From assembly GCA_963840645.1 (NCBI GenBank), contig CAWIZL010000002.1:81663-145662 (forward strand): 64,000 bases of DNA. The letters run 5' to 3'. Of the stretch, positions 1,092-60,101 are shown piece by piece. Both the position numbers and the translations under genes were made by a program. Position 1 is the stretch's first letter, and every line of letters begins with the position of its first letter. The notes under the pieces were generated by a model that saw nothing but the letters and a program-made list of their open reading frames with translations, searched no databases and was not told the DNA's origin. This stretch comes from Candidatus Doudnabacteria bacterium (GTDB lineage Bacteria; Patescibacteriota; Doudnabacteria; UBA920; VMFF01).

Positions 1092-1812
1092 ACATCCACA
1101 CGTTCACGCACAGGAGCACGACCATCCACACGGCGAGGCCGACGATGTCGTCAGCAGATGCTCCAATGCGCACCGATGTAAAGTTTTCACGCAGGCCAAC
1201 AGCCAGGTACGTTATTGGCAAGAACTCAGAAAATTTTTGTAGAAATTCAGGGAATACAGCTGCGGGGACGAACACATTGCCGAGCAACGTGAATGCCAAG
1301 TTCACGGTTGCCGTAATTGGCGATGCCTCTTCGTAGTTTCGCGCAAAGTTTGAAATGAGGAAGCCGACGTTCAAGAACACAATGCCACCCAGCAGGCTGA
1401 CGAGCGCAATGTTCAGGTAGTTGCCCTGTGCAACAGCGCCAAAGTAGTGAATGCCAATGAACACGAGAATCACCACCTGCACCAGCATGAGCAGCAGGCG
1501 CGTGGTGACGAGCGACCCAATGAGCTCCCACGTGGAAAGCGGCGTGACCATGAAGCGCTTGATCACCCCGCGCTCGCGCATGTCAATGAGCCAGTACGCC
1601 AAGGTGAAAATGCCTGTCTGCATGATTGTCATTGCAATGATGCCTGGGAGCAGGTAGGTTGAGTAGTCTATGGCAATGCCGCCAAAGCTCTTGAGGTGCA
1701 GCAGCCCCACGAAAATGTAAATGCCAATTGGCAGCAGAATGCTGTAGAACAGCGCGCGCCAGTTGCGGTACAGAATTTTTAGGTTTGCGTTGAAGAGTGC
1801 GAAAAAAGACAT
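1069..1812 (-). CDS. ABC-2 type transporter permease
   Basis: 247-aa ORF with multiple hydrophobic segments, immediately downstream of an ABC ATPase gene. Confidence 0.75.
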   Translation of the reverse strand: MSFFALFNANLKILYRNWRALFYSILLPIGIYIFVGLLHLKSFGGIAIDYSTYLLPGIIAMTIMQTGIFTLAYWLIDMRERGVIKRFMVTPLSTWELIGSLVTTRLLLMLVQVVILVFIGIHYFGAVAQGNYLNIALVSLLGGIVFLNVGFLISNFARNYEEASPITATVNLAFTLLGNVFVPAAVFPEFLQKFSEFLPITYLAVGLRENFTSVRIGASADDIVGLAVWMVVLLCVNVWMFNGKREV

Positions 1813-2867: not shown

Positions 2868-2896
2868 TTGACAAATAAGATTCATATGTTATATTT
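2868..2896 (+). promoter_or_regulatory. sigma70-type promoter of the DGR-1 target gene
   Basis: TTGACA (2868-2873), 16-17 nt spacer, TATATT/ATATTT (2890-2896). AAGGAG lies just before the ORF. Confidence 0.5.
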
Positions 2897-2957
2897 TAAG
2901 CTAAACCTGAAGATCCACAGGGATTAAATTAAATGGACACTTTACAACTCAAAGGAG

Positions 2958-3597
2958 ATGCAACCAATGGCTAATACCGTTGCGACCATCGTTGAAGGAA
3001 TGTCAGTCGAGCAGGGTGGCAAAATGGCTGACCAGCTGTTGACCTACTGCCGCAAGCACGGCTCAGTTTTGCCGAAGAGTACCGTGCAGGAAGTGTTGAA
3101 GCAGGATGGCGAAGTAGTAGCAAAAGAGCAGTTTGAGGTTCTCAGGAAGTACGTTGAGCGGCGGAGCAAGATCATCGTCCGACGTGTCACCATAAACTGG
3201 GATCTGACGCCCGAGCAGATGATCGCAGCAACAAAGCGGAAACAGTACGTCACCGCCGGGGTGCTCGCAACAATGCCTCGTCAGGGGGCGGGTATCGAGA
3301 AAGATGTCGATATGTACTTTTTTCCCGCTGAACGCCAACTCACCATCGACGAGCAGGAAGCAGAAGCTCGCGGCGTACGGACTGGAGCCGTGCTACTACG
3401 GCCAGATCCAGGCAAACATCGACGACTCCTCTTTCGCCGATGAGCGCTGGAATGGTGCTCAGTGGGACAACAAGGATGGGCAAGCTTCGTTCGTCTCCTT
3501 CTACGGGAACGGTGACGGGCGCAGCGTGAGCTGCAACCGCGACGATCACAGGTGGGTTGCCTACGACTGGTTTGCTGGTCGCCTCGCTCGCAAGTAG
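2958..3597 (+). CDS. DGR-1 variable (target) protein; reading frame interrupted once
   Basis: ORF 2958..3443 (frame 0) and ORF 3304..3597 (frame +1) overlap and together encode one protein. The VR lies at the extreme C-terminus (..FVSFYGNGDGRSVSCNRDDHRWVAYDWFAGRLARK). Confidence 0.8.
3493..3595 (+). repeat. VR1 (variable repeat of DGR-1)
   Basis: Ungapped alignment to 3932..4034 (offset 439). 13 mismatches, 11 at TR adenines. The 3' ~30 nt are identical. Confidence 0.9.
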
Positions 3598-3651
3598 CTT
3601 GGGTGCTTGGCATCTCAGCCATTGGTATTCACTTGAGCCTTGGCTCTTTTT

Positions 3652-3695
3652 AATCCTACGTTCCGATTTATCGGAACGTAGGATTCTCCTTTTTT
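3652..3695 (+). terminator. intrinsic terminator after the DGR-1 target gene
   Basis: Perfect inverted repeat AATCCTACGTTCCGAT/ATCGGAACGTAGGATT followed by CTCCTTTTTT. Confidence 0.7.
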
Positions 3696-3718
3696 AAAAA
3701 CTTTGGTACAATATTTTT

Positions 3719-4072
3719 GGTGAACTGTACCTGCGGCTAAGGCTTCAGGTAGCCACCTCGCACTATTGAGTAACCGGTGTGTTGCTGGCTACGGCTCGCG
3801 ACAGGAGTGTTCCTCAATAGCCTTCCAACGAGGATACTTGGTGCAGGCTTCTGGTGGATTTCAATATCCCAAATAAAATACAGCCCCGAGATTTTTCAAG
3901 GGGCAGTGGCGTGGATGGTAGTCTGCACGATGTCACCTTCAACAGGAACGGTGACGAGCGCAACGTGAACTGCAACCGCAACGACAACAGGTGGAATGCC
4001 AACTACTGGTTTGCTGGTCGCCTCGCTCGCAAGTCTCTTCGTTGCTCTCCCTACAGTGGGAGAGTTTGGTTT
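3719..4072 (+). ncRNA. predicted stand-alone TR1 RNA (leader + TR + 3' hairpin)
   Basis: Extended -10 TGgTACAAT at 3704-3712. Conserved leader blocks CCTGCGG..GGCTTCAGG (3730-3749), GATACTTGGTG (3833-3843), TCAAGGGGCAGTGG (3896-3909). TR at 3932-4034. Hairpin CTCTCCC/GGGAGAG at 4045-4064 followed by TTTGGTTT. Confidence 0.5.
3932..4034 (+). repeat. TR1 (template repeat of DGR-1)
   Basis: AAC-rich (reads ..NRNGDERNVNCNRNDNRWNANYWFAGRLARK in the VR frame). Invariant partner of VR1. Confidence 0.9.
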
Positions 4073-4389
4073 CCAAGCTGCTTTTTCCAGCCGCCAATCA
4101 TTTTGCCGACCTCGGCCAAAGGCTCACCCAAGGCGGCAAAACGTTTGTTATCTAGGATTTTCAATTCCCATGCGAGCTGGACAAAGTACTTCAAGGTATC
4201 AACTTTCAGGCTTGCCTTTTGAATGATAGGAGCTTTTTGTTCTCTGGCCGCGTAAGCTGCCAGTAGAATCAGCTCCATCAGCTCAAGGAACAGCAAGTTG
4301 ATTTTCTCTCCCAGTGAGTAGCGTGTCTGCCGTGGAATATGCGGCGCGTAGCTGTACCAAACTTTGTAGGTATCTGAAATTTTTACCAA
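4051..4389 (-). CDS. avd: Avd-like DGR accessory protein (four-helix-bundle / 23S rRNA intervening-sequence protein family)
   Basis: 112-aa ORF starting at TTG, paralogous to 50638..50976 and 58659..59012. The frame stays open upstream through the C tract. The conserved ATG at 4445 is in frame only if the tract is 11 nt. Confidence 0.8.
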   Translation of the reverse strand: MVKISDTYKVWYSYAPHIPRQTRYSLGEKINLLFLELMELILLAAYAAREQKAPIIQKASLKVDTLKYFVQLAWELKILDNKRFAALGEPLAEVGKMIGGWKKQLGNQTLPL

Positions 4390-4422
4390 GACAGACAGGT
4401 TTGCTGTGGATAAATTAGCGTT

Positions 4423-4432
4423 GGGGGGGGGG
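4423..4432. repeat. G10/C10 homopolymer between the avd and RT starts
   Basis: Counted directly; preceded by TGTGGATAA + 9 nt as in the other two cassettes. Confidence 0.9.
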
Positions 4433-4451
4433 TCTTGTAGGCCATTGTTTT

Positions 4452-5453
4452 ATGAAAGCTACTTTTGATAAAAATTACAGCGAAATAATTTCGGTAGAAA
4501 ATCTACTAGCTGCTTGGCAAGAATTTGTCGTCGGCAAAGCCTCAAAGAGAGACGTGCAGAATTTTAGATTGAACTTGCCTGACAACATTCTACAGCTTCA
4601 CGTCGATCTTGCCAATAAATCCTATAAACATGGTGGGTACACAGCATTTGGGATTTCAGACCCAAAGCCGCGGCGAATTCACAAGGCGAGCGTGCGCGAT
4701 CGTGTGCTGCACCATGCAGTCTACAGGCAGCTCTACCCGTTCTTTGATCGACTTTTCATTGCCCACTCTTTTTCTTGCAGAGACGGCAAGGGAACCCACA
4801 GGGCAATGGATGCTCTCAAATCATTTGCGTACCAGGTGAGCGTGAGCCACACAAAAACTTGCTGGGTGCTCAAGTGCGACATCAAAAAGTTTTTTGCGAG
4901 CATTGACCATGGGGTTTTAATTAAAATTTTAGAAGCTCGGATTGCTGATGAAAATATTTTATGGCTGCTCATGGAAATTATCAGTAGCTTTGAGTCTATA
5001 CCCAGCAAAGGTTTGCCGCTCGGCAACTTAACGTCTCAGCTTTTCTGCAATGTGTACATGAATGAGTTTGATCAGTTTGTGAAACGTGAGCTTCGCAGCC
5101 ATTGGTACATTCGGTACGCCGCCGACTTCGTGTTTCTGTCAGAGAGCAGAAAGCAGCTCGAGGAGAAGATACCGCTAGTATCAAACTTCCTTGGCGAAAA
5201 ACTAAAGCTGTCTTTGCACCCAAACAAGGTATCCATACAGTCGTTTGCTTCCGGCGTAGATTTTTTGGGCTGGATTCACTTCCCAAACTATCGAACTTTG
5301 CGCACAGCAACCAAGAGGCGAATGATCAAACAGGTTAAAACTTCGCCAAAACCCCAGACCCTTCAGTCATACTTGGGTATGCTTCAGCATGGGAATGCTT
5401 ATGATTTAAGCCAAGAAGTACTGGATGAGTTCTTACTGTTAGGAAATAAGTAA
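4452..5453 (+). CDS. DGR reverse transcriptase 1 (motif C reads YAAD instead of YADD)
   Basis: RT motifs VLKCDIKKFFASIDH and the DGR-type LPLGNLTSQLFCNVYMN. Motif C is YIRYAADF (codon 5121-5123 is GCC). Confidence 0.9.
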   Translation: MKATFDKNYSEIISVENLLAAWQEFVVGKASKRDVQNFRLNLPDNILQLHVDLANKSYKHGGYTAFGISDPKPRRIHKASVRDRVLHHAVYRQLYPFFDRLFIAHSFSCRDGKGTHRAMDALKSFAYQVSVSHTKTCWVLKCDIKKFFASIDHGVLIKILEARIADENILWLLMEIISSFESIPSKGLPLGNLTSQLFCNVYMNEFDQFVKRELRSHWYIRYAADFVFLSESRKQLEEKIPLVSNFLGEKLKLSLHPNKVSIQSFASGVDFLGWIHFPNYRTLRTATKRRMIKQVKTSPKPQTLQSYLGMLQHGNAYDLSQEVLDEFLLLGNK

Positions 5454-5603: not shown

Positions 5604-13085
<7,482 letters not shown>

Positions 13086-39035: not shown

Positions 39036-39469
39036 GGGTTTGGTCTAGAGGGACAGCGGAATCAAAAATGACCACCCGCTTGCCCCACCTAACCTTTCGG
39101 CTAGGGACCCTTGTAAAGGCTAAGACAAAACGGATGGCCGTCTCTGCTTTACAAGGGATTTTTGCCATGCCCAGAGCAGACCGCTCGTAGGTTTAGGCAA
39201 ACTATTAAATTGTGCCTAAATCATAGTATTTTTGGAGTCTTTGTGCAAACGCGTGGTTTTCTGTAAAACTGGCAGCCCAGGGCACAGCGCAGGTTCGTCC
39301 CTCGGAGTGCCACGGCAGCCCACGTGGAATCTTTGCGCCAAAAGCTTAGAATTGTATGCCCGTCCAAAATCTCTCACTCTGAAGTTGTTTAAAGGCTGGG
39401 CTACCGACACTTGGTTTTAACCGAGTGTAGTTTGGTGCAGGTGTTGCACATTCTTAAAGTTGTAAACCC

Positions 39470-41155: not shown

Positions 41156-42659
41156 ATGGCAAAGAATCAATTGAAGCACAACGGAAGGTACCTCGCATAC
41201 GTCCGCGTATCATCAAGAGACCAAGAAAACGGCATGAGTTTGGACGTTCAGCAGAGCCAGATTGAGTCGTACGCGCGGGAGCGTAGCATGCAGATCGGAA
41301 AATTCTTCGGTGGCGTGGAGGCTGCCTCGCAGACGGGCCGAGAAGAGTTCGGCGAGATGGTCACGATGCTGAAGCGGGAGAAGTACCAGGGGATCATCTT
41401 CGCGAAGGTGGATCGCAGCGGCAGAAATCCGTCTGGACCAGGCGAAGCTCTACGAGCTCATGGGAGCCGGGTACGAGTTCCACTTCGTGGCGGAGCGGCT
41501 GACCACGGCAGAGCACACGGCGAAAACCATGCTGTACCTCCTGTGGGGCGTGGCGAGCGGGTTCAGTGAGAACCTAAAATTTGAGGTGAACAAGGGCATC
41601 TACGCCATGCTGAAAGCGGGTAGGTACCCGAACCCTGCGCCGATCGGGTACCGCGATGCAGGCCGTGGCGTGAAGGAAATTGACGAAGTAAAAGGGCCGA
41701 TCATCAAGAAGCTATTTGAGCTGTACAGCACGGGCAACTGGGACATCCTGTCGCTGCACAAAAAAATTACTGACATGGGACTCGTAACGAAGGTGACCAA
41801 GCAGTACGGCTCAAAGCCGCTCAAGGCGAACGCACTGTACAAGATCCTGCGCAACCCGTGGTACTACGGCTGCATGCTGTACAACGGGGAGAGCTACTTG
41901 GGCGCGCACACGCCGATCATCAGCAAGCAGCTGTTCGACAAGGTGCAGAACCTCTTAGACAGGAGGAGCTTCAAACACCAGCGGAAGTTCCAGTACGTGT
42001 TCCAAGGACTGCTAACCTGCCACACTTGTGGAAAGCCGTTGCGCTCCATTTCATCAAAGGGAAAGTACAAGTACTACGCCTGTAGAAACTTGGCCTGCAG
42101 GTGCAACGTCAACGAAGACTTTGTTGCAATGCAGTTCGAGTACGACCTTCGGCAGCTAGAGTTCTCGGACGAAGAGGTAGAGCTGTTCCTGAAAGCAGTG
42201 GCAATGTTCAGGCAGGAACTCAACCAGTCTAAGGCTGATGAGATCAAGACAATCAACATGGAGCTAGGCAAGACCAAGGCTGAAGCCGAGCGATTACTGC
42301 AACTGTATTTGCAACAGAGCGTGAGCGAGCAAGACTACAAGTCCATGAGATCGAAGCTGGTGAACCGAGAGCTGGAATTGCAAGAGCGGAAGGTTGCGCT
42401 GGAGACCGCCGACAGGAAAACGGTGGACGATATAACAGAAATTGGAAAACTACTCAAAAGGCCATCCCTGGCATACAGGATGGCCTCTGAGGAGAAGAAA
42501 CGTTTTCTCGTGAAATCTCTAGTGGAAAACTTTTCCTGGAATGAGAAAAAGCTAACCACCAATTGGCAGAAACAGTACAAAGTCGTTGCAGAAAGACCGC
42601 GGGTAGAGTTTGGTAGCGCTACCGGGAATCGGACCCGGATTCTCACATTGAAAGCGTGA
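41156..42659 (+). CDS. large serine recombinase (one frame break near 41.44 kb)
   Basis: Resolvase domain YLAYVRVSSRDQ..; recombinase domain; zinc ribbon CHTCGKPL..YYACRNLACRC; coiled coil. The last 49 nt overlap tRNA-Glu. Confidence 0.85.
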
Positions 42660-42685
42660 TGTCCTAACCATTAGACGATAGCGCC
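42611..42685 (-). tRNA. tRNA-Glu (anticodon UUC), CCA encoded
   Basis: Hand-folded cloverleaf: acceptor GGCGCTA/TAGCGCT, D arm GTCT/GGAC, anticodon arm TCACG-CTTTCAA-TGTGA, T arm CCGGG-TCCGATT-CCCGG. The T loop has C where U55 is expected. Confidence 0.75.
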
Positions 42686-49547: not shown

Positions 49548-50156
49548 ATGTCTGAAATCGAAACATTGACCGCATCTGAACCATACGACAGGCAGGTTGA
49601 GAAGTTGACCGAACGGTTGCTCGCAGCAGGGCGCAAATCGGGAATTCCACCATCTCAGTTTCAGGTGGGTCTCGAGTACCCTGGTACTCAGCTCGAAGAT
49701 AAGATTGCGAAGATTATTGTCGAGTTCTCGAAGAGGGCATCTGGAATCTTTACTCTCATGGCCGCAAAGGACACTGGCCTCGTACGAGATGGTTGGACGA
49801 TCGAGAGCGATGACCCGTGCAACGTTGATGTCGCCAAACTCGATTATTCGTATTGCCCCGTAAAGGCAGGCGAAGGTTCCATCAACGGAACCGTCTTGCT
49901 AGAACGTGCGTGCGGCATCGGATGTCTTGGCTTCGGCAAGCTCGTGCTCGACGAGCAGAAAGCGGGAAGGAATGTTATTCCCGTGGAACTGCAAGGGAAG
50001 ATTTATATTCCTCTCACCAGAACCATTCTGCGGAACCGTTACGATGACCGCTACGTGCCGTGCCTCCATTGGAATGGTTCGGAGTGGTGCGTGATCTTCT
50101 TCTGGCTCGACGACAGGTTCAACTCGGATGCTCGTTTGGTTCGCCCCAGCGAGTAG
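49548..50156 (+). CDS. DGR-2 variable (target) protein
   Basis: 202 aa, AGGAGG RBS, no signal peptide. C-terminal VR ..RNRYDDRYVPCLHWNGSEWCVIFFWLDDRFNSDARLVRPSE. Homologous to 57510..58175. Confidence 0.85.
   Translation: MSEIETLTASEPYDRQVEKLTERLLAAGRKSGIPPSQFQVGLEYPGTQLEDKIAKIIVEFSKRASGIFTLMAAKDTGLVRDGWTIESDDPCNVDVAKLDYSYCPVKAGEGSINGTVLLERACGIGCLGFGKLVLDEQKAGRNVIPVELQGKIYIPLTRTILRNRYDDRYVPCLHWNGSEWCVIFFWLDDRFNSDARLVRPSE
50026..50150 (+). repeat. VR2
   Basis: 125-nt ungapped alignment to 50494..50618 (offset 468). 13 mismatches, all at TR adenines. Confidence 0.95.
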
Positions 50157-50278
50157 CACTCAGACACTTGGCTACTCTTTGCTTTTGGGTCTTGTACCCT
50201 TGGCACTTGCGCCCACGGTTTTGCAGCAATGCAAACCCGTTGGTTTTACTTTTCATAAAATTTTCCTATACTACTTTT

Positions 50279-50660
50279 GGACAGAGCGTTCAGCCTGGGT
50301 TACGGCTTCAGGCAGCAAGTCTAGCGTTACCAAAAAATGAGAGTGTCAGGGGGTACGCCTCATGGCAGAAATATTTTTTGGCAATCTTTAAAAAAAGATA
50401 CTCGGTGTGCAGTGTCAGAGAGCTGACGGCTCTGCGTAAAATTCAACCCCGAGAGTATTCAAAGGGTGGTGGCATGGACGACACTGCGCACGTTTCTGCG
50501 GAACCGTAACGATAACCGCAACGTGCCGTACCTCAATTGGAATGGTTCGAAGTGGTACGTGAACTTCAACTGGCTCGACAACAAGTTCAACTCGAATGCT
50601 CGTTTGGTTCGCCCCAGCTAGTATCTCCCACTCCTCCTTAAGCAAGAGGAGTTTGGTTTG
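50279..50660 (+). ncRNA. predicted stand-alone TR2 RNA
   Basis: -10 TATACT at 50267-50272. Leader blocks at 50294-50312, 50397-50407 and 50459-50472. TR at 50494-50618. Hairpin ACTCCTC/GAGGAGT at 50630-50652 followed by TTTGGTTTG. Confidence 0.5.
50494..50618 (+). repeat. TR2
   Basis: Reads ..RNRNDNRNVPYLNWNGSKWYVNFNWLDNKFNSNARLVRPS in the VR frame. Confidence 0.95.
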
Positions 50661-51021: not shown

Positions 51022-51031
51022 GGGGGGGGGG
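51022..51031. repeat. G10/C10 homopolymer
   Basis: Counted directly; TGTGGATAA lies at 51004-51012, 9 nt upstream. Confidence 0.9.
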
Positions 51032-51053: not shown

Positions 51054-52073
51054 ATGAAGATTACATTTGAAAAGAATTACAGCGAAATTATTTCCCCAGA
51101 CAACCTGTTTGCTGCTTGGCAAGAGTTTACCATTGGCAAGAGATCGAAGAAGGATGTGCAAAATTTCAGCCTGCACCTATCTGACAATATTCTACAGCTT
51201 CACCGCGACCTTGCCAATTTTACTTATAGGCACGGTGGATATTCCGCGTTCAATATCTCTGATCCAAAGCCGCGCAACATTCATAAGGCAAGTATCAGAG
51301 ACAGGGTTTTGCACCATGCAATCTATAGGCAACTCCACCCATTCTTTGACAGGACCTTCATACCAGATTCATTTTCATGCCGCATCAATAAAGGTACGCA
51401 CAGAGCAATGAATCGGTTTCAAGCCTTTGCATGGAAGGTTAGCGGCAACCATACGAAAAATTGTTGGGTGCTAAAGTGTGACATAAAAAAGTTTTTTGGA
51501 AGCATTGACCACGCTGTCTTGCTGAAAATTTTAATCACCCACGTACGAGATGAAAAAATACTTTGGCTTCTCCAAAACCTAATCGAGAGTTTTAATTCTG
51601 GCAGTCCTGGAAAAGGTTTGCCTCTCGGTAACTTAACGTCCCAGTTGTTTTGCAACGTGTACATGAATGAGTTTGATCAATTTGTGAAGCATAGACTCTG
51701 TGCGAAAAATTATATTCGCTACGCTGATGATTTCGTGTTCATGTCTAACGATGAAAGGTGGCTCAGGAACCAGATCCCTAGAATCTCAGAATTTTTAGAG
51801 AACCAGCTACAGCTACATTTGCACCCAAACAAACTATTTGTGAAGAACCTTGCTTCGGGCGTGGATTTTTTAGGTTGGGTACATTTTTCAAAATTTAAGG
51901 TGGTTCGTTCTACAACCCAGAAGCGCATGGTACGAAGGATCTCTGAACAGCCAACGAACGAAACCATACAGTCGTACCTGGGACTACTGAGGCACGGAGA
52001 TGCCTATGATCTTCAGCAAGAAATTTTGAACCTGTATGGCTTGCTTGCGTCGCGCTCGTTTGACCACACATGA
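51054..52073 (+). CDS. DGR reverse transcriptase 2
   Basis: LPLGNLTSQLFCNVYMN, YIRYADDFVF. Confidence 0.9.
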   Translation: MKITFEKNYSEIISPDNLFAAWQEFTIGKRSKKDVQNFSLHLSDNILQLHRDLANFTYRHGGYSAFNISDPKPRNIHKASIRDRVLHHAIYRQLHPFFDRTFIPDSFSCRINKGTHRAMNRFQAFAWKVSGNHTKNCWVLKCDIKKFFGSIDHAVLLKILITHVRDEKILWLLQNLIESFNSGSPGKGLPLGNLTSQLFCNVYMNEFDQFVKHRLCAKNYIRYADDFVFMSNDERWLRNQIPRISEFLENQLQLHLHPNKLFVKNLASGVDFLGWVHFSKFKVVRSTTQKRMVRRISEQPTNETIQSYLGLLRHGDAYDLQQEILNLYGLLASRSFDHT

Positions 52074-57509: not shown

Positions 57510-58175
57510 ATGTCTACATTGCTCACGTCCAAGAAGAACGCTACCGAGGCTCAATTTCGCCGCGTGCGAAACCTGACCCAGGAAGCAATTGAAGCAGCCA
57601 ACCTCGAACAGGCAGGCTTCACCCACGACGATATGCAGGCTATCCATGCCAACGCCGCACCGTACAAGAAGGAGCTTGCGGTCGCCTTCATCGCTTTTCT
57701 CACTAGCTTCACCAAGAAGCTGCTGGGCATCGCAACCCCCGTCCCCGCCGACAAGACCAGCCTGATTCCAAATGGCTGGACTGTCAAAGTCAGGGAGAGC
57801 GTTCCGCAAGACTTTCCCGAAAGCGACGTTGACCTCTCCAAGCTCGACTACTCGCTGTGCCCAGTTCGGGGCAGCGAGGAGCACATCAACGGCACAACGA
57901 TGATGGCACGGGCGAGAGAAGACAAGGCAATCGGCAGCCTCGGCTTAGCGGCTGTGCTCCTCAAGGCTCAGGACGAGGGTAAGGAAATCTTCCCCGTCGA
58001 ATCTCGCGGCAAGCACTATTTCATCATGCCGCTGACTGAGTTGCAGGGCGTCATCGGTTTCGGCTACGTGGCGTACTTCCGCTGGTCTCGCGGGGAGCGG
58101 CGTTGGGTGCTGGGCTTCGGCTGGCTCGGCCGCAGCTTCGTCCGCGACGGCCGCTTCGTTCGCCGCAGCGAGTAG
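57510..58175 (+). CDS. DGR-3 variable (target) protein
   Basis: Start at the ATG 9 nt after GGAGG (ORF track starts at 57501). C-terminal VR ..GVIGFGYVAYFRWSRGERRWVLGFGWLGRSFVRDGRFVRRSE. Confidence 0.85.
   Translation: MSTLLTSKKNATEAQFRRVRNLTQEAIEAANLEQAGFTHDDMQAIHANAAPYKKELAVAFIAFLTSFTKKLLGIATPVPADKTSLIPNGWTVKVRESVPQDFPESDVDLSKLDYSLCPVRGSEEHINGTTMMARAREDKAIGSLGLAAVLLKAQDEGKEIFPVESRGKHYFIMPLTELQGVIGFGYVAYFRWSRGERRWVLGFGWLGRSFVRDGRFVRRSE
58041..58175 (+). repeat. VR3
   Basis: 135-nt ungapped alignment to 58528..58662 (offset 487). 25 mismatches, 24 at TR adenines. Confidence 0.95.
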
Positions 58176-58306
58176 CTCTCGGACACTTGTCACCTTGGTG
58201 CTTTCGGGTTTTGAACCCTTGGCACTGCGCTCTATCCTCACACCTCAGGCTTCGGTCTCTGGTGTGGGGATTTCTTTTTCGAAATTTCTTCTGGTACAAT
58301 TCTTTA

Positions 58307-58696
58307 GGATAGATGCTGCGCCTGCGGTCACGGCTTCATGCAATCTCTCTAGCGATTACTAAAAATCAGGGTATCGGCGGCTACGGTTTCCGATAGAGCA
58401 TTCTTTAGTAACTCTTCAAAAGAAGATACTCGGTGCGAGGTGTTGGCGAGGTTTAATTCCTCCTAACAAAAAGATACAGCTCCAAGAGCACTCAAGGGGC
58501 AGTGGACAGGATGACACCCCGCATATTTTGCAGGACGACAACGGTAACGGCAACGTGGCGTACTTCAACTGGTCTAACGAGAAGCAGCGTTGGGTGCTGG
58601 ACTTCAACTGGCTCGACAACAACTTCAACCGCAACGACCGCTTCGTTCGCCGCAGCGACTAGCTTCTCACTCCTACTTCGGTGGGAGTTTCTTTTG
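58307..58696 (+). ncRNA. predicted stand-alone TR3 RNA
   Basis: Extended -10 TGgTACAAT at 58292-58300. Leader blocks at 58321-58340, 58425-58435 and 58492-58505. TR at 58528-58662. Hairpin ACTCCTAC-TTCG-GTGGGAGT at 58669-58688 followed by TTCTTTTG. Confidence 0.5.
58528..58662 (+). repeat. TR3
   Basis: Reads ..DNGNGNVAYFNWSNEKQRWVLDFNWLDNNFNRNDRFVRRSD in the VR frame. Confidence 0.95.
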
Positions 58697-59012
58697 CGAG
58701 CTGTCTCTGCCAGCCGCCGAGCATTTTTCCCGCTTCTACCAGTGAACTCGAAATTTGCACATACTGCTTATTATCAAGCACCTTTAGCTCCCAAGCCATT
58801 TGCAAAAAATATTTCAGGGTGTCCAGTTTAATGCTGGCCTTTTGAACAATCGGCAGCTTGGTTGCCTTGGCGGCAAATCCTGCCGTGAGAATCAGCTCGA
58901 TGACATCTGTGAACAGTTGGCCTATCTTTTCTCCCAGCGAGTGCTTCGACAGCCGTGGGATGTGCGGCAGCAGGCTGTGCCAGAACTTGTAAGCACCGCC
59001 AACCTCTTGCAA
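58659..59012 (-). CDS. avd: Avd-like DGR accessory protein 3
   Basis: 117-aa ORF from TTG. The frame is open upstream through the C12 tract. The ATGs at 59064 and 59073 are in frame only if the tract is 11 nt. Confidence 0.8.
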   Translation of the reverse strand: MQEVGGAYKFWHSLLPHIPRLSKHSLGEKIGQLFTDVIELILTAGFAAKATKLPIVQKASIKLDTLKYFLQMAWELKVLDNKQYVQISSSLVEAGKMLGGWQRQLAKETPTEVGVRS

Positions 59013-59045: not shown

Positions 59046-59057
59046 GGGGGGGGGGGG
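59046..59057. repeat. G12/C12 homopolymer
   Basis: Counted directly; TGTGGATAA lies at 59028-59036, 9 nt upstream. Confidence 0.9.
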
Positions 59058-59084: not shown

Positions 59085-60101
59085 ATGAAAATTAAATTTG
59101 AAAAAAATTACGAGAGCATCATCTCACTTGAGAATCTATTTTTAGCCTGGCAGGAATTTATTGTGGGCAAAAGAAAGAAACGTGATGTCCAGCAGTTCAG
59201 TTTAAGTTTAACCGATAACCTTGTCCAGCTCAACGCCGAACTCACAGCTCGTTCCTACAAGCACGGCGGCTACAAGGCCTTTAACATTTCTGACCCAAAG
59301 CCACGCAACATACACAAGGCGACTGTTCGAGACAGGGTGCTGCACCATGCTATCTACAGGCAGCTGTACCCTTTCTTTGACCGAACCTTCATTGCCGATT
59401 CATTTTCTTGTCGTTTGGGCAAGGGAGTTCATAAGGCGTTGGGTCGGTTCGAGAGCTTTGCGTTGCAAGTGAGCAGAAACAACACCCGCACTGCTTGGAT
59501 TTTGAAAATGGACGTGAGGAGATTCTTTGCGAGCATTGACCACGAAATCTTGCTAGGCATCTTAGCCGCTCACATACCCGACCAAGACATTCTCTGGCTC
59601 TTGGGGCAGATTATAGAGAGCTTCTCATCTAAACCTGATACAGGGTTGCCCCTCGGCAACTTAACCTCGCAGCTGTTCTGCAACGTGTACCTGAATGAGT
59701 TTGACCAGTTCGTGAAGCACAAGCTCAAGGGTAAATATTACATTCGCTATGCCGACGACCTCGTTCTCTTTTCCGATGACAGGGAGTGGCTGTTGGGTCG
59801 GGTGAGCCTGGTATCTGATTTCTTGGAGCAGCGGCTTTGCCTGTCCTTGCATCCTGACAAACTTTGCTTGAAGAGCCTATCGTCAGGCATGGACTTCTTG
59901 GGATGGGTAAATTTTCCCCACCATCGGGTTCTGCGAACCACAACGCAAAGGCGGGCAATGAAAAGAGTACAGGCTCACCCCACCGATGACACCGTGCAGT
60001 CCTATTTAGGACTGTCAGTCCACGGCAACGCCTTTGATTTTAAGCAGCGAATTTTGAACTGGTATGGGTTGATTTCAGAGAAAGGATATTATAAGAAGTG
60101 A
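59085..60101 (+). CDS. DGR reverse transcriptase 3
   Basis: LPLGNLTSQLFCNVYLN, YIRYADDLVL. Confidence 0.9.
   Translation: MKIKFEKNYESIISLENLFLAWQEFIVGKRKKRDVQQFSLSLTDNLVQLNAELTARSYKHGGYKAFNISDPKPRNIHKATVRDRVLHHAIYRQLYPFFDRTFIADSFSCRLGKGVHKALGRFESFALQVSRNNTRTAWILKMDVRRFFASIDHEILLGILAAHIPDQDILWLLGQIIESFSSKPDTGLPLGNLTSQLFCNVYLNEFDQFVKHKLKGKYYIRYADDLVLFSDDREWLLGRVSLVSDFLEQRLCLSLHPDKLCLKSLSSGMDFLGWVNFPHHRVLRTTTQRRAMKRVQAHPTDDTVQSYLGLSVHGNAFDFKQRILNWYGLISEKGYYKK

Follow-up and report, generated by a model that had tools for sequence, protein, structure and literature searches.

A 64,000-nt stretch of DNA from a Candidatus Doudnabacteria bacterium (positions 81,663–145,662 of contig CAWIZL010000002.1, assembly GCA_963840645.1; hereafter referred to as the window) carries three cassettes of the diversity-generating retroelement (DGR) type, and the reverse transcriptase (RT) of the first of these lacks one of the two aspartates of the catalytic YxDD box. 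This raises the question of whether a single substitution has disabled an otherwise ordinary cassette, or whether the locus is better understood as a decaying element, as a cassette served by its neighbors, or as the product of an assembly error.

A single substitution in motif C of RT1

Within the ORF of RT1 (Table 1), the motif C codons read TAC GCC GCC GAC in frame and specify Y222, A223, A224, and D225. At the same position, RT2 reads YIRYADDFVF (YADD at 51720–51731, with GAT as the codon concerned) and RT3 reads YIRYADDLVL (YADD at 59748–59759, with GAC), and RT1 departs from these paralogues by one A-to-C change at position 5122 (i.e., GAC/GAT to GCC). All three proteins match Pfam RVT_1, while a YxDD box with both aspartates is found in RT2 and RT3 (YADD) and is missing from RT1 (YAAD). 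This absence bears on the activity of RT1, not on its descent from the DGR RT family. The initial annotation of the window had read the three motifs in this way, which is borne out by codons and frame, and had taken the difference for a substitution rather than an indel, which agrees with the single A-to-C change and with the occurrence of the same protein in an independent assembly.

More specifically, an identical 333-aa RT1 is encoded on a 2189-bp contig from the independent Logan assembly of run ERR11571140, in which RT2 is also reproduced exactly. The Logan contig spans VR1 as well, and encodes an identical peptide for the last 75 residues of target 1, all of VR1 included. Window and Logan assembly show zero amino-acid differences over these 747 codons (RT1, RT2, and the VR1 peptide), and substitution error must therefore be low in those stretches. 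Since the Logan contig of cassette 2 is one base longer than the window in the interval from the avd2 stop to the RT2 start (with avd there being called as 135 aa, a product that the window sequence does not allow), the Logan assembly represents a separate consensus, and because it encodes an identical RT1, A224 is not a consensus-polishing slip. The A224 codon in RT1 is probably a real allele.

Table 1. Features of the three cassettes and of related metagenome cassettes. Positions refer to the window unless a locus is named.
Feature	Position	Strand	Remarks
Target gene 1	2958–3597	+	Two frames, 2958–3443 and 3304–3597; frame change within about 3318–3375
VR1, variable repeat, 3′ end of target gene 1	3493–3607	+	Stop codon 3595–3597
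Non-adenine mismatch 1	3546	+	VR1 T vs. TR1 C3985; synonymous GAC>GAT
Non-adenine mismatch 2	3565	+	VR1 G vs. TR1 T4004; TAC>GAC, Tyr>Asp
Structured non-coding leader 1, between VR1 and TR1	3598–3931	+	Aligned with cassettes 2, 3, L012, L016, and L017
TR1, template repeat	3932–4046	+	Direct repeat with VR1, 85% identity
Hairpin directly after TR1	4045–4064	+	CTCTCCC / loop TACAGT / GGGAGAG
avd1, four-helix-bundle accessory protein, divergent from RT1	4051–4389	-	112 aa from TTG; Pfam bAvd PF22296, E-value 4.6e-15
G10 homopolymer, avd1 core to RT1 start	4423–4432		Counterparts: cassette 2 51022–51031 (G10), cassette 3 59046–59057 (G12)
RT1, RT of cassette 1	4452–5453	+	ORF of 333 aa plus stop; Pfam RVT_1, E-value 3.9e-25
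RT1 motif A catalytic Asp, D143	4878–4880	+	Retained; LKCDIKKFF over bRT LKSDFSKFF (contains D138)
RT1 DGR-type motif B, LGNLTSQ, residues 190–196	5019–5039	+	Retained; invariant in RT1, RT2, and RT3
RT1 motif C, Y-A-A-D	5115–5126	+	A224 codon GCC at 5121–5123; Asp in the family
RT2, cassette 2	51054–52073	+	VR2 50020–50162, TR2 50488–50630, avd2 on minus strand from 50638
RT3, cassette 3	59085–60101	+	VR3 58037–58177, TR3 58524–58664, avd3 58659–59012 on minus strand
Other leaders	50157–50493; 58176–58527; L012 2518–2875 (-); L016 2091–2433; L017 2114–2447		~330 nt
L012 RT (JGI metagenome contig Ga0182027_10048862)	976–2064	-	Motif YIRYAADF; TR 2394–2517, VR 2878–3001

Cassette 1 as a probable member of the CPR DGR family

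RT1 falls within the DGR clade of RTs by its RVT_1 domain, by its LPLGNLTSQ stretch at residues 188–196 (the SQ motif being a hallmark of DGR RTs; PMC3521204), and by its best solved relative, i.e., the RT of Bordetella phage (bRT; 8ub7_A, E-value of 6.6e-36). A group II intron RT/maturase or a retron RT was rejected as an identity for RT1, with Pfam returning only RVT_1 and Rfam returning no intron RNA in the window; as kin of RT1, group II RTs gave much weaker PDB matches (E-value of 1e-16 vs. 1e-36 for bRT). The only Rfam matches above gathering score in the window were a LOOT RNA (RF03000; 53.4 bits) at 39070–39199 and one tRNA at 42614–42685, both on the minus strand.

The order of parts appears to be the standard one for Patescibacteria-type DGRs, i.e., a target gene with a 3′ VR, a leader of ~330 nt, a TR, a hairpin, avd on the opposite strand, and the RT. 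Between TR1 and VR1, 11 of the 13 internal mismatches are located at TR adenines and the other two are not. VR1 ends at the stop codon of the downstream frame of target gene 1, from which the 5′ part of the gene is separated by a frame change that may be an assembly error. Target gene 1 had no Pfam match, and a tblastn comparison with targets 2 and 3, meant to place the frameshift, revealed no homology. Pfam bAvd matches were obtained on minus-strand ORFs between TR and RT in all three cassettes; for avd1, the match covers positions 6–106 of the 107 in the profile, and the Logan contig likewise has a bAvd call for this gene.

The three RTs are roughly equidistant from one another (65% identity for RT1–RT2, 61% for RT1–RT3, and 62% for RT2–RT3), and the three Avd proteins are 53–60% identical to one another. 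Protein P0042 is identical to RT3, and no relatives of RT1 above 71% identity were present in the databases searched. The named homologues of RT1 all belong to Patescibacteria/CPR (Paceibacterota, Sungbacteria, Jorgensenbacteria, and similar), and are cellular, not viral. The same layout, with a VR-to-TR spacing of 439–487 nt, was found in all six cassettes that were compared (i.e., cassettes 1–3 and the metagenome loci L012, L016, and L017). A Patescibacteria/CPR-restricted "DGR clade 2" has been described by Roux et al. 2021 (PMC8144416), and cassette 1 fits such a CPR-restricted clade as far as the taxonomy of its matches, rather than a tree placement, allows it to be assigned: clade 2 shares its cellular hosts with the homologues of cassette 1, and architecture and leader are common to L012, L016, and L017.

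Cassette 1 and the DGR of BPP-1 are both built from an RT, an Avd, and a TR RNA flanked by structured RNA, and both show adenine-specific TR-to-VR differences. The arrangement differs, however: BPP-1 has a same-strand avd upstream of the TR and a structured spacer downstream of it, whereas in cassette 1 avd sits between TR and RT on the other strand, and a structured leader of ~330 nt precedes the TR. Within the known family of CPR DGRs, cassette 1 is probably best described as an ordinary representative that carries a recent loss-of-function allele.

Predicted role of the lost aspartate

In an alignment of RT1 with bRT, the RYAAD of RT1 lies over RYMDD (Y213-M-D215-D216), with A224 corresponding to D215 of bRT and D143 to D138. 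In the cryo-EM structure of bRT, a putative Mg2+ is located 2.2 Å from D138 and 2.3 Å from D215 (bioRxiv 10.1101/2023.10.23.563531). In motif C, the YMDD of bRT thus places D215 on the Mg2+ where RT1 has an alanine, while the motif A aspartate and the SQ motif are kept in both enzymes. The equivalence with D215 supports the view of the initial annotation that the first motif C aspartate is a metal-binding residue. In bRT, an engineered change of YMDD (Brt positions 213–216) to SMAA abolishes homing (PMC3240598). This BrtSMAA mutant, the standard RT-dead control, resembles RT1 in having lost the motif C aspartate, but it is a laboratory triple substitution in which the tyrosine and both aspartates are gone, whereas RT1 has a natural single D-to-A change and keeps the tyrosine and the second aspartate.

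Both aspartates of YxDD have been reported to be 100% conserved in DGR RTs (PMC3521204). Aligning RT1 with the DGR RT family, as the initial annotation had proposed, agrees with that report. Among the 120 best homologues examined, the 119 besides RT1 all have the motif C aspartate and read YADD, one of them as YSDD. Of 135 cluster representatives (50% identity) that span the motif, 134 have the aspartate, the sole exception being an out-of-frame fragment, and the motif A aspartate was present in 141 of 142 aligned representatives. Judged by these alignments, the departure of RT1 at motif C is far beyond chance. Since A224 takes the place of a residue that sits on Mg2+ in bRT, and since the aspartate is near-invariant in the family, RT1 is very probably polymerase-dead, in keeping with the earlier prediction of its inactivity.

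Rarity and recurrence of YAAD

When 185,579 species genomes were scanned with a degenerate DNA pattern for Y-[IVLM]-R-Y-A-A-D-F-[VIM], 11 places were retrieved, none of which was inside an RT. A slightly longer pattern retrieved three places from JGI metagenomes, i.e., a DGR-type RT (L012), a group II-like RT (L014), and one chance match. The viral contigs of IMG/VR contained no YAAD, against the small denominator of just 32 YADD matches. Finally, a motif-centered profile search, in which 60 family segments carrying an Asp-to-Ala exchange were compared with 5.8 billion proteins, returned only fragments of 33–83 aa with no YAAD among them, the motif C variants being a single YVND and a single YAGD fragment. 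Within the collections searched, YAAD is a matter of sporadic singletons, not of a lineage.

The RT of L012 belongs to the same family as RT1, has the same YIRYAADF motif, and stands in a cassette of the same layout. Since its identity to RT1 is 58%, against 66% to YADD enzymes, its YAAD appears to be an independent mutation. The two cassettes differ in other respects. The TR/VR pair of L012 has about 22 adenine mismatches and, unlike that of cassette 1, no internal non-adenine mismatches; YAAD need therefore not accompany an idle cassette. Moreover, the L012 RT departs from conserved columns at seven positions (vs. four in RT1), which is above any of the 120 homologues (maximum of six).

As a separate observation, the group II intron-like RT at L014 (Ga0137362_10145844; ~1192–1223, minus strand) also reads YIRYAADFIVL, and its upstream part looks fused or rearranged.

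State of the remainder of cassette 1

The initial annotation had further described cassette 1 as a decaying DGR, with reference to the split target gene and the two non-adenine TR1/VR1 mismatches. Both features are present in the assembly. Nevertheless, the split of target gene 1 is no evidence of decay, because indels have likewise disrupted the essential genes rpoB and rpoC of the window (5604–13085): rpoB is spread over three frames and rpoC over at least eight pieces, with at least 10 frame breaks between them, and these also occur away from homopolymers. Split genes in such an assembly should not be taken for decay. RT1, RT2, RT3, and some further long ORFs of the window are free of frame breaks, the errors being unevenly spread along the contig.

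The sequence of RT1 also speaks against decay. At columns with at least 93% conservation across the family, RT1, RT2, and RT3 each show four departures, and the dN of RT1 to three outgroup RTs (0.22–0.29) is the lowest of the three paralogues, a comparison of relative dN only, with dN/dS being unusable because synonymous sites are saturated in every pair. Since RT1 has no more departures than RT2 and RT3 and the smallest dN to the outgroups, the YAAD mutation is probably young compared with the gene itself. In addition, avd1, the leader, and TR1 are intact. An RNAalifold alignment of the leaders of the six cassettes yielded 61 consensus pairs, 33 of which show compensatory changes, and cassette 1 keeps 53 of these pairs, compared with 52 in cassette 2 and 55 in cassette 3. 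A hairpin of 7–8 bp with covarying stems directly follows the TR in all six cassettes (in the regions 50634–50655 and 58669–58690 for cassettes 2 and 3, the latter with a UUCG loop).

What stands of the earlier claim are the two non-adenine mismatches, which lend it some weight. Among the six cassettes, cassette 1 is the only one with such internal mismatches, cassettes 2, 3, L012, L016, and L017 having none, and the VR side of the mismatch at 3565 is confirmed at the protein level in the Logan contig. Adenine exchanges without a piling-up of non-adenine mutations have been published as the mark of continuing diversification (PMC3521204). Since non-adenine mismatches are a published sign of VR idleness, VR1 has probably remained unrewritten for some time, and the pair suggests that there has been no recent homing at VR1. 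However, two mismatches are few, and RT misincorporation or an error on the TR side could be their source instead.

A proposed recent knock-out and its alternatives

On balance, we favor the reading that cassette 1 is an otherwise intact and ordinary cassette that was recently knocked out by D224A and is now idle, and we hold it to be reasonably likely, though well short of certain. In this scenario, a real and evolutionarily recent GAC-to-GCC point mutation in RT1 would have removed the first motif C aspartate, one of the two carboxylates predicted to hold the catalytic Mg2+. Since an RT1 without its metal-holding aspartate would not be able to make cDNA from TR1 RNA, cassette 1 would no longer diversify VR1 on its own, even as its remaining parts are seemingly still intact. 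VR1 would then preserve the adenine-specific scars of earlier activity together with two ordinary substitutions that were not overwritten, and the cassette would probably have lain idle for a while. Provided that the base call is correct, the locus represents a natural single-residue knock-out of a DGR RT in a small genome that also carries two intact paralogous DGRs, and thereby a natural test of whether DGR cassettes strictly need their own RT, and of the speed at which VR and TR drift apart after homing stops.

The base call itself could nevertheless be mistaken, in which case the true codon would be GAC, the C at 5122 having arisen during base calling or consensus building in an error-rich long-read assembly, and RT1 would be a normal, active YADD enzyme. 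Essential genes of the window do contain many indel errors, also outside homopolymers, and window and Logan assembly disagree on the length of the avd2–RT2 interval. Natural YAAD is moreover very rare, maybe no commoner than the per-base substitution error in a poor assembly, and if ERR11571140 is the same long-read set as that behind the MAG, a systematic base-calling error would be carried into both assemblies. Yet, an independently built k-mer assembly of that run encodes exactly the same 333 residues, the 747 shared codons are without any amino-acid difference, and the errors seen in the window are indels, not substitutions. We regard an artefact as unlikely, although it deserves to be kept in mind.

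The other alternatives accept the mutation and concern its consequences. The conservation of leader helices, post-TR hairpin, and sequence blocks across the three cassettes might allow RT2-Avd2 or RT3-Avd3 to bind TR1 RNA via its leader and hairpin and to rewrite VR1, leaving RT1 dead and cassette 1 functional in trans, and the intactness of all cis parts of cassette 1 and the adenine-only state of L012, another YAAD cassette, would suit such servicing. The initial annotation had raised this idea because of the shared leader blocks, and these are indeed common to the three cassettes; as a ground for trans servicing they fall short, being family-wide (i.e., also found in unrelated metagenome loci) rather than specific to this genome. 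Leader 1 is 62–63% identical to the leaders of L016 and L017 vs. 52–54% to leaders 2 and 3, and RT1 is 71–67% identical to the foreign RTs P0002, P0004, and P0005 vs. 65% and 61% to RT2 and RT3. Since leader and RT are both closer to foreign than to co-resident cassettes, RNA and RT apparently co-evolve. Further objections come from the Avd proteins being only 53–60% identical, from the extensive, essential, and specific RNA–protein contacts of the bRT RNP (10.1101/2023.10.23.563531), and from the persistence of two non-adenine mismatches in TR1/VR1 that regular homing would erase, and we rate functional servicing in trans as improbable.

It is more improbable still, in our judgement, that the YAAD enzyme is not dead at all, but either retains reduced polymerase activity via D143 and D225 or serves a non-catalytic role in binding or chaperoning DGR RNA. 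Its ORF is fully conserved apart from residue 224, with no excess of damaging changes, and L012 offers a second, independent YAAD DGR RT with an intact cassette; RT-dead group II intron proteins, for their part, can keep maturase function. Against this, the aspartate is essentially invariant at its position and contacts the metal directly in bRT, YAAD forms isolated singletons and no conserved clade, and the seven conserved-column departures of the L012 RT are more easily explained by decay of that copy than by selection for the variant. A broader form of cross-talk, in which a dead RT1 would be tolerated because RT2-Avd2 or RT3-Avd3 copy TR1 RNA, or in which RT1 would act as an RNA-binding scaffold, likewise has little probability in our view; if true, it would turn the three cassettes into a network instead of autonomous units.

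Leader RNA, hairpins, and the avd–RT interval

The leader of ~330 nt, similar in length and structure in all six cassettes, matched no Rfam family. In BPP-1, bRT is wrapped in structured RNA, and the leader may be the equivalent of that RNA in a position upstream of the TR. The hairpin after the TR resembles the Avd-binding stem-loops described for other DGRs. When the DNA downstream of each VR was folded in search of a target-recognition hairpin, no fold was better than those of shuffled sequences.

Every cassette has a simple-sequence tract that separates the avd core from the RT start codon, being G10 in L017, G9 in L012, and (CT)n(GT)n in L015 and L016, next to the G tracts of the window. 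A G11 tract would put all three avd genes of the window in frame from an upstream ATG (M-x-Y-K-T-P-P-P-N...). Either the assembly has the length of the homopolymer wrong, or the tract varies in length, perhaps by phase variation, and controls avd.

The divergent avd and RT genes leave almost no intergenic space between them (4390–4451 in the window, and equivalents). Extended –10-like sequences (of the TGnTAnAAT type) are present on the RT strand inside the 5′ region of avd in cassette 2 and in L015–L017, and the –10-like sequence is weaker in cassettes 1 and 3 (CAAGAC).
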